Origin: a virus
Taxonomy: Duplodnaviria > Heunggongvirae > Uroviricota > Caudoviricetes
DNA: 12,655 bases
Direction: 5' to 3' (one strand)
IMG/VR virus record: IMGVR_UViG_3300018481_000018
Span: 131,759 to 144,413 of that record
Shown: piece after piece, positions 5,907-6,179 of the stretch
How the letters are laid out: every line of letters begins with the position of its first letter
Position numbering within the stretch: the first letter of the stretch is position 1
Notes under the pieces: generated by a model
Database searches by the model: none
What the model was told of the DNA's origin: nothing
The model's input: only the letters and a program-made list of their open reading frames with translations
Program-made: the position numbers and the translations under genes

Positions 5907-5943
5907 CACAGCCCGCCCCACTCATCAAGTGGGGCGGGCTGTG
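5907..5943. terminator. Probably bidirectional terminator between convergent units
   Basis: Perfect 16-bp stem CACAGCCCGCCCCACT / AGTGGGGCGGGCTGTG, 5-nt loop. Confidence 0.8.
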
Positions 5944-5944
5944 C

Positions 5945-6144
5945 GGCGTCTGGAGTACTACCCCCCAGGGTTCCCCCCGAACGCTAGCGAGCACTCACTG
6001 GGTTCCTGCGGCACCCTTCCGGACAGGTGATGCAGGTCCTGGTGACGGTCGGACCAGATACGCCTATACCAGCCGTGCTTGACCTTGGAGTTGTATGCGC
6101 CCCCAGGGCCGTTCAACAACGGGGGTAGAGCGACCCTGGAGGCA
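5945..6144 (-). ncRNA. Candidate ~200-nt structured non-coding RNA
   Basis: Bounded by a near-consensus promoter (6179-6151) and the 5907-5943 hairpin. No ATG on the minus strand of the interval; 5' and 3' ends are complementary. Confidence 0.55.
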
Positions 6145-6150
6145 ATCCGA

Positions 6151-6179
6151 ACATTAGGCCCGGACCGGCTCCTCGTCAA
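6151..6179 (-). promoter_or_regulatory. SigA-type promoter TTGACG-N17-TAATGT in the 3' end of the HNH gene, pointing left
   Basis: Minus strand -35 TTGACG at 6179-6174, -10 TAATGT at 6156-6151 overlapping the HNH TAA stop, 17-nt spacer. Confidence 0.75.

Follow-up and report, generated by a model that had tools for sequence, protein, structure and literature searches.

The DNA analyzed here (the window, 12,655 nucleotides) is the final 12.6 kb of a 144,413-bp IMG/VR virus record with 64% GC from an uncultured soil phage. Between terL, which encodes the large terminase subunit, and the gene for a conserved protein designated gpX, the minus strand probably carries an independent accessory gene for an undescribed small structured RNA, opposite the late structural genes. 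The core of this RNA is predicted to fold as a Y-shaped three-way junction, and the family that it appears to define has few members and matches no described family. An earlier note, made from this one sequence, had proposed a phage non-coding RNA on the minus strand between a promoter-like hexamer pair and a hairpin; conservation and covariation in three further contigs support that proposal, but none of the three functions that the note offered for the RNA. Coordinates below are window positions unless marked as genome positions, and L-numbers designate the contigs or loci of relatives. The following features define the RNA unit.

Between the hairpin at 5905-5945 and the HNH stop codon, minus strand: the flagged stretch, 208 nt
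5990-6079, minus strand: Y-shaped three-way-junction RNA core, ~90 nt, conserved in four contigs
6079-6075 with 5994-5990, minus strand: P1 helix
6074-6052, minus strand: P2 hairpin, with a nearly invariant apex and an RGGC loop
6045-5995, minus strand: P3 long arm, ending in the 8-nt loop GUCCGGAA (6024-6017)
6018-6023, minus strand: 6-nt palindrome UCCGGA between purines in the P3 loop, a candidate site of kissing-loop dimerization
6151-6179, minus strand: predicted sigma-70-like promoter pair (–35 TTGACG, 17-nt spacer, –10 TAATGT), within the last nine HNH codons and stop
6098-6144, minus strand: 5' hairpin A, a 13-bp stem in the minimum-free-energy (MFE) fold, in the window/L063 lineage only and absent from L004 and L084
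5946-5989, minus strand: 3' spacer from core to terminator, with conserved AACCCUGGGGGG (5972-5961), in the window/L063 lineage only
5905-5945, both strands: 19-bp GC-rich hairpin, a putative bidirectional terminator without a U-tract, ending the RNA unit and the operon of terL and a small open reading frame (ORF)
6143-6155, plus strand: 13-mer CAATCCGAACATT, whose reverse complement supplies the –10 of the RNA promoter

Pairwise evidence for the fold comes from L063, a relative retrieved through its gpX protein (88% identical). Relatives of this type were revealed by soil-metagenome contigs that matched terL, 105 nt within the terL-gpX gap, the HNH gene, and gpX, with unalignable DNA between these matches. 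L063 shares the layout of the window (small ORF, hairpin of different sequence, gap, plus-strand motif, minus-strand HNH gene, gpX), and window positions 5958-6106 are 84-88% conserved there, with indels in both flanks. The Y-shaped domain was defined by folding the window minus strand alone and then mapping the L063 differences onto the fold. Within the core, 11 substitutions distinguish the two sequences, 9 of them at paired positions, and every pair remains intact. Compensation is complete at two adjacent pairs (U-A to C-G and G-C to A-U), and all five one-sided changes are compatible with G-U pairing on the minus strand and give A-C mismatches in the plus-strand fold. When substitutions of the same kinds were placed at random in simulations, the probability that no pair was broken was 0.017 and that of the joint pattern was 0.0015.

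A covariance model (CM) built from the window and L063 found one further match in 568 kb of related loci, at L004 4716-4812 on the minus strand (E 0.009, and 4e-4 in a small CM search). With L004 added, the three-sequence model identified L084 2281-2381, again on the minus strand and in the terL-gpX gap, with a score of 75.5 bits (E 4e-17). The L004 core lies in the same gap with no HNH gene and is followed by a hairpin and a same-strand tRNA-Arg(CCT) gene; the L084 gap contains no called gene and no HNH gene. The core is thus always found between terL and gpX and always on the minus strand (four of four metagenomic phage contigs).

In a model-based alignment of the four sequences, 93% of cells are paired and 14 pairs show double changes; none of 500 shuffles came up to this, and slid controls paired 33-45% of cells. 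An alignment made with MAFFT, which is not fitted to structure, and folded with RNAalifold recovered P1 and P3 and also revealed covariation, with 13 of 30 pairs compensatory. In this treatment P2 takes an improved form, a 9-bp hairpin with an RGGC loop, and one of its pairs shows four pair types. The fold also has a strand preference: 113 of 119 cells pair on the minus strand versus 98 of 119 in the plus-strand mirror fold, the consensus energy is –32.8 versus –21.3 kcal/mol, and 17 cells are G-U.

Conservation extends to the loops. The window and L063 share the P3 loop GUCCGGAA, L084 has AUCCGGAA, and L004 has GUCGCGAA, which corresponds to R-UCCGGA-A in three sequences and G-UCGCGA-A in the fourth, and the double change from CG to GC preserves the palindrome. 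This palindrome is unable to pair within its own loop. Its retention suggests kissing-loop dimerization through P3, and a palindrome acting at the DNA level is also possible. The nearly invariant P2 apex together with the P3 loop suggests specific recognition. Among the four sequences, the P2 and P3 loops share no conserved complementarity, the 5' part has no conserved anti-Shine-Dalgarno stretch, and no conserved antisense target was found.

A promoter-like pair at 16-17-nt spacing lies upstream of the core in all four copies. As the earlier note had described, the minus strand of the window carries TTGACG at 6179-6174, a 17-nt spacer, and TAATGT at 6156-6151, a stretch that overlaps the end of the HNH coding sequence. 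The two hexamers are unchanged in L063 and still 17 nt apart, even though indels have altered the spacer between them. The corresponding minus-strand pairs are TTGGCA-N17-TACTGT in L084 and TTGCGA-N16/17-(G)TATGT(T) in L004; the chance of matching at least four of six –35 positions at 16-18 nt is ~0.07 per lineage. HNH coding constraint cannot account for the –35 in L004 and L084, because it lies there in non-coding DNA. At the other end, an equally strong hairpin of unrelated sequence stands downstream of the core in all four loci. It adjoins the core directly in L084 (0 nt), follows after 9 nt in L004, and lies ~45 nt away in the window and L063.

Two additional elements between the core and these signals are specific to the window/L063 lineage. 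Despite indels, L063 retains hairpin A, with one inserted U-A pair and G-U-compatible changes. In both the window and L063, the 5' arm of hairpin A can pair instead with the distal segment CCCUGGGGGG (5961-5972), and the 12-mer CCCTGGGGGGTA is identical in L063 with diverging flanks. This alternative pairing corresponds to the outer helix CTCCAGGGT/ACCCTGGGG that the earlier note had drawn to close a nested rod. It can form in the close relative, but the segment is missing from L004 and L084, and the predicted helix is therefore lineage-specific.

Judged from the single sequence alone, the flagged features amount to no more than chance, and their reality depends on the comparison with relatives. 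The minus strand from 6150 to 5946 contains no ATG, as had been noted, and a 73-codon minus-strand ORF in the stretch was rejected as coding: in L063 a stop codon interrupts its frame, no homologue of it was found, and the source record does not list it among the called genes. The hairpin that had been given as 16 bp is present but spans 19 bp, is GC-rich, and occupies 5905-5945. The pairings of the proposed rod can all be written, but the nested rod is not the conserved structure. One of its inner hairpins (CCTGC..CAC..GGAA..GTG..GCAGG) proved to be the apical part of a covariation-supported helix, whereas the other (CTGGT/ACCAG) clashes with covariation-supported helices. Folding of a 261-nt stretch that includes the terminator hairpin gave z = –4.1. 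The 205-nt body without the terminator showed no excess stability over dinucleotide shuffles (z +0.03 on the minus strand, –0.84 on the plus strand), and we therefore attribute the whole of the –4.1 to the hairpin. A consensus scan called neither a promoter (8/12 matches) nor a terminator in the flagged stretch; the hairpin was missed because it has no T-run. Rfam covariance models gave no match at E≤1 over the window, nor at E≤10 over 5900-6200 and the L063 equivalent; permissive thresholds returned only hairpin look-alikes (microRNA precursors, htlv_FSE) far under their gathering scores. A CUGAUGA hammerhead core on the plus strand of L063 only was rejected, as it has neither GAAA nor an Rfam match.

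The genes that surround the RNA unit, with examples of the same gap in relatives, are as follows.

4186-5808, plus strand: terL, large terminase subunit, 43% identical to an annotated large terminase, with 56 relatives
5820-5900, plus strand: small hydrophobic ORF of 26 residues after terL, with a GTG start and a strong ribosome-binding site GAGGAGGA
6154-6513, minus strand: free-standing HNH gene, 119 residues, the sole minus-strand gene around the RNA locus
6592-6993, plus strand: gpX, conserved 133-residue protein, always between terL and portal
7193-9085, plus strand: portal gene
416-428, 2320-2332, and 6143-6155, plus strand: copies of CAATCCGAACATT in the window
L004 4534-4938, L066 1560-3000, L005 6642-7336, and also L006, L007, and L010: examples of the terL-gpX gap in relatives

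The gene order terL-gpX-portal is conserved among 56 IMG/VR loci with a related terL, where the terL-gpX gap varies from 40 nt to 2 kb and contains the HNH gene in none. The position and character of the small hydrophobic ORF (26-32 residues) are kept in L063, L065, L071, and L084; a tRNA takes its place after terL in L004. No Pfam family matched gpX. The gap is a cargo hotspot among relatives, and its contents include the Y-shaped RNA, a minus-strand tRNA-Arg (L004), the HNH gene, a glycosyltransferase gene (L066), and other ORFs. Elsewhere in the window, positions 2790-2862 (plus strand) hold a tRNA-like gene, which ARAGORN calls as tRNA-Pyl with anticodon CTA (an amber reader) and which scores 30.5 bits as tRNA-Sec in Rfam, under the gathering score.

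Further searches added no copies of the RNA. A CM search of the phage's own genome returned only the locus itself. Positions 5800-6600 had no blastn match among 50,697 phage records, and comparison of the gap with the 56 terL loci and four HNH loci by blastn and nhmmer gave chance matches only. The IMG/VR, JGI, and GTDB collections were also scanned with exact and degenerate patterns. Matches from IMG/VR (L067-L069) were unrelated, a metagenome match (L070) lay in a bacterial coding region, none of eight GTDB matches (L074-L081) scored with the CM at the pattern site, nor did L085 or L086, and two further patterns had no matches.

The adjacent HNH gene is separate from the RNA. Its motif (DDH...HN...CxxC) can be read in the sequence, and Pfam PF01844 scores 16.5-18.2 bits, under the 21.4 cut-off (16.5 for the window gene); one homologue carries PF01844. 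Homologues with 57-78% identity occur in unrelated contexts, either next to a gene for a DNA polymerase or within clusters of small genes. At four such loci the downstream genes are tightly packed and there is no such RNA or similar 3' region. A search of IMG/VR with the HNH protein retrieved no relative. The gene is absent from the 56 terL relatives and from L065, L071, L004, and L084. In L063 the gene occupies the corresponding position, with 86% identity over window residues 3-108 and a different C-terminal tail and stop. In the window the stop is the TAA at 6156-6154, inside the –10; another TAA, in the spacer, serves in L063 (L063 1775-1800). The tails differ because the final HNH codons fall within the RNA promoter's spacer, where the two sequences diverge. 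L084, L071, and L065 contain orthologues of the ~45-60 nt preceding gpX and of the plus-strand motif region, and the body of the HNH gene takes up the interval from the –35 to the gpX leader. These comparisons indicate a free-standing mobile endonuclease gene that was apparently inserted beside the RNA unit in the window/L063 lineage; its ORF runs through the predicted RNA promoter to a stop inside the –10. The RNA occurs without the HNH gene in L004 and L084, and HNH homologues at other loci occur without the RNA; the gene therefore does not belong to the RNA unit. On this evidence the nuclease gene arrived beside a pre-existing RNA unit, and its position there does not make it a partner.

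The same comparisons leave the functions that the earlier note had offered unsupported. Its suggestion that the RNA partners the HNH protein fails on co-occurrence in L004 and L084 and at the four homologue loci, and a 119-residue, HNH-only protein is not an IscB. A decoy for RNA polymerase of the 6S/Ms1 type is not supported, given the three-way-junction core, the lack of the rod-closing helix in L004 and L084, and the Rfam result. Antisense regulation of terL does not fit the map, as the predicted unit ends at 5905, terL ends at 5808, and the small ORF lies between them with no overlap.

The –10 of the RNA promoter coincides with a plus-strand motif. CAATCCGAACATT has 7 exact copies in the genome and ~20 with two or fewer mismatches. 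Nearly all lie outside genes, and most precede a start codon in the same orientation by 35-100 nt; no other position at a fixed distance from the copies is conserved. The instance at 6143-6155 is orthologous to one in the HNH-less L065 (24-nt match), and variants occur in L063, L071, L004, and L084. The motif is likely a phage-specific promoter or operator, and at this locus it points to gpX and portal and away from the flagged RNA. Some copies are tandem or form inverted pairs, and two lie within the spacer of TTGAC..TAnnnT pairs. Between the RNA and gpX in L004 (4810-4860), inverted motif-like half-sites (CGAACAT, 8 nt, ATGTTCG) have a placement like that of a divergent promoter or operator.

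We propose that host RNA polymerase would start near 6140-6145 and stop at the 5905-5945 hairpin, which predicts a transcript of ~240 nt here and one of ~160-180 nt in L004 and L084. As the –10 overlaps the plus-strand gpX/portal motif, the two divergent units would probably be mutually exclusive, and the overlapping promoters suggest exclusion between early, host-polymerase-driven synthesis of the RNA and late transcription of gpX and portal. The RNA would act in trans by its shape, through binding of a protein or dimerization via the P3 loop, and not by antisense pairing.

Several observations weigh against an independent RNA gene. The core was found in just 4 of ~70 related terL-gpX loci and is missing from ~60. 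A CM search of five large relatives gave no match, and the relatives that lack the RNA include two estimated to be 100% complete and a third at 88%. Because complete relatives and most related loci lack it, the RNA is dispensable accessory cargo. Single-sequence z-scores of the core are ordinary (–0.5 to –1.2), and the evidence for it is therefore comparative and not thermodynamic. That comparison involves only four sequences from three lineages, two of which were found and first aligned by the model itself. The promoter signals have other possible sources: TTGACN-N16-18-TANNNT occurs 5 times in the genome versus 2.9 expected, the –35 in the window and L063 can be explained by HNH coding constraint, and the –10 is explained equally well by the plus-strand motif. 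L071, a closer relative, has (as does L072) TTGACG-N17-TATGTT on the minus strand with no HNH gene and no core, and a terminator follows after ~35 nt; the L071 pair was read from intergenic sequence at about L071 830-960. Because pair and terminator occur there without the core, the promoter may be older than the RNA or may have a separate role of its own. L065, which has neither the HNH gene nor the core, has the motif and no –35. Finally, the tRNA in L004 begins within 22 nt after the hairpin, which implies read-through, and the hairpin is therefore not always a full stop. The L071 arrangement is either a minimal unit or a deletion remnant.

Other explanations account for parts of these results. 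The core could be a cis-acting element in the 3' untranslated region of the HNH mRNA, a stabilizer or processing signal transcribed from the promoter of the HNH gene itself, with TTGACG and TAATGT there by coincidence. In the window and L063 the core directly follows the HNH gene on the same strand with no U-tract terminator between, and the promoter pattern is not enriched genome-wide; we nevertheless consider this reading unlikely, as core, promoter-like pair, and hairpin all occur in L004 and L084, where there is no HNH gene, and HNH homologues elsewhere lack such a 3' region. Alternatively, the RNA could be secondary to a divergent promoter pair and bidirectional terminator, selected as a switch or insulator between the terL and portal operons. 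The overlap of the –10 with the genome-wide motif, the retention of promoter and terminator ~35 nt apart in L071, and a sigma-70-family protein encoded by the phage itself (genome 127226-128281) would all suit such a device. It leaves unexplained why 13-14 pairs are compensated and why the P2 apex and P3 loop are nearly invariant, and for that reason seems improbable.

The tRNA gene that follows core and hairpin on the same strand in L004, along with the tRNA genes and tRNA look-alikes of this phage group, raises the prospect that the core belongs to a tRNA-type precursor, as a leader or spacer with a processing or punctuation role, and that this phage has lost the tRNA. In the window, L063, and L084, ARAGORN calls no tRNA after the core, and neither ARAGORN nor Rfam detects the core as a tRNA, which makes this account very unlikely. 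The last alternative dispenses with an RNA: the region would be ordinary intergenic DNA or a DNA-level site, such as a protein-binding palindrome or packaging signal, and the apparent structure would reflect GC-rich inverted repeats and quasi-palindrome correction. An MFE no better than that of shuffles, the palindromic character of TCCGGA and TCGCGA in DNA, and a locus between packaging genes are in keeping with it. The strand asymmetry of the pairing, with its G-U cells, and compensation in three separate helices and in independent lineages speak against it, and we regard it as highly improbable. An independent accessory gene for a small structured RNA accommodates these observations and remains the reading that we favor. 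More far-fetched is the idea that the RNA represents a new class of dimerizing phage accessory RNA that works with terminase, gpX, and portal, or a structured decoy against RNA-directed host defense; a packaging role, if true, would establish a second kind of RNA associated with packaging, distinct from that of the phi29 group.

To our knowledge, phage-encoded small RNAs are few and poorly understood, and hardly any from the large, uncultured, high-GC soil phages has been delimited by structural comparison. The RNA described here would add a compact, covariation-supported fold with a fixed place between packaging genes, a promoter-like pair, a terminator hairpin, and a possible dimerization loop, and its core is short enough for synthesis and testing. 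The locus also offers what appears to be a mobile nuclease gene that settled beside an existing RNA gene and borrowed the RNA promoter region for its last codons, and it cautions that a partnership of nuclease and RNA should not be inferred from adjacency in one genome.

Among known systems, 6S and Ms1 RNAs resemble the window RNA in overall length (~240 nt) and in the end-to-end helix that can be drawn for it. They differ in being rods with a central bubble, whereas the conserved part here is Y-shaped; the outer helix is missing from L004 and L084, and the RNA has no Rfam match. The IscB proteins that partner omega-RNAs combine RuvC, bridge-helix, and HNH domains in about 400-500 residues. 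As with HEARO and IscB omega-RNAs (PMC9640706, PMC9755519), a structured RNA adjoins an HNH-containing gene in the window, but that gene encodes 119 residues with only a weak PF01844 match, the RNA occurs without it in L004 and L084, and no Rfam family matched. Non-coding RNAs of mycobacteriophages were detected by RNA-seq (PMC5712189). Like the present locus, these are small non-coding transcription units in an actinophage-type genome, but they are defined by expression and the Y-shaped RNA is defined by comparative structure only.

For the P3 loop and the three-way junction, the likenesses are structural. Where the P3 loop keeps a purine-flanked 6-nt palindrome as its sequence changes from UCCGGA to UCGCGA, it recalls the HIV-1 dimerization initiation site and other kissing-loop hairpins. 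The HIV-1 site is a hairpin loop with a 6-nt palindrome flanked by purines. The likeness is limited to this one loop, the biological setting is unrelated, and dimerization of the Y-shaped RNA is an inference from its sequence. The pRNA of phi29 contains a three-way junction, and two different complementary loops assemble it into rings. The Y-shaped RNA shares a three-way junction (with P1-P3 supported by covariation), a loop able to pair between molecules, and a position between terminase and portal genes. Unlike pRNA, it has a single self-complementary loop, which would give dimers, its P2 loop has no conserved complementarity, it has no Rfam match, and this phage encodes a classical large terminase; because complete relatives lack it, it cannot be an essential part of packaging. 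Phage T4 encodes species 1 and 2 (the band C and D RNAs), small stable RNAs, beside its tRNA genes. No sequence or Rfam relationship links them to the Y-shaped RNA, which in three of four loci sits by itself between structural genes, flanked by its own promoter-like pair and a hairpin. Even so, like them it is a structured non-coding RNA of 100-250 nt that a phage encodes and to which no function has been assigned, and its L004 copy lies directly upstream of a same-strand tRNA.

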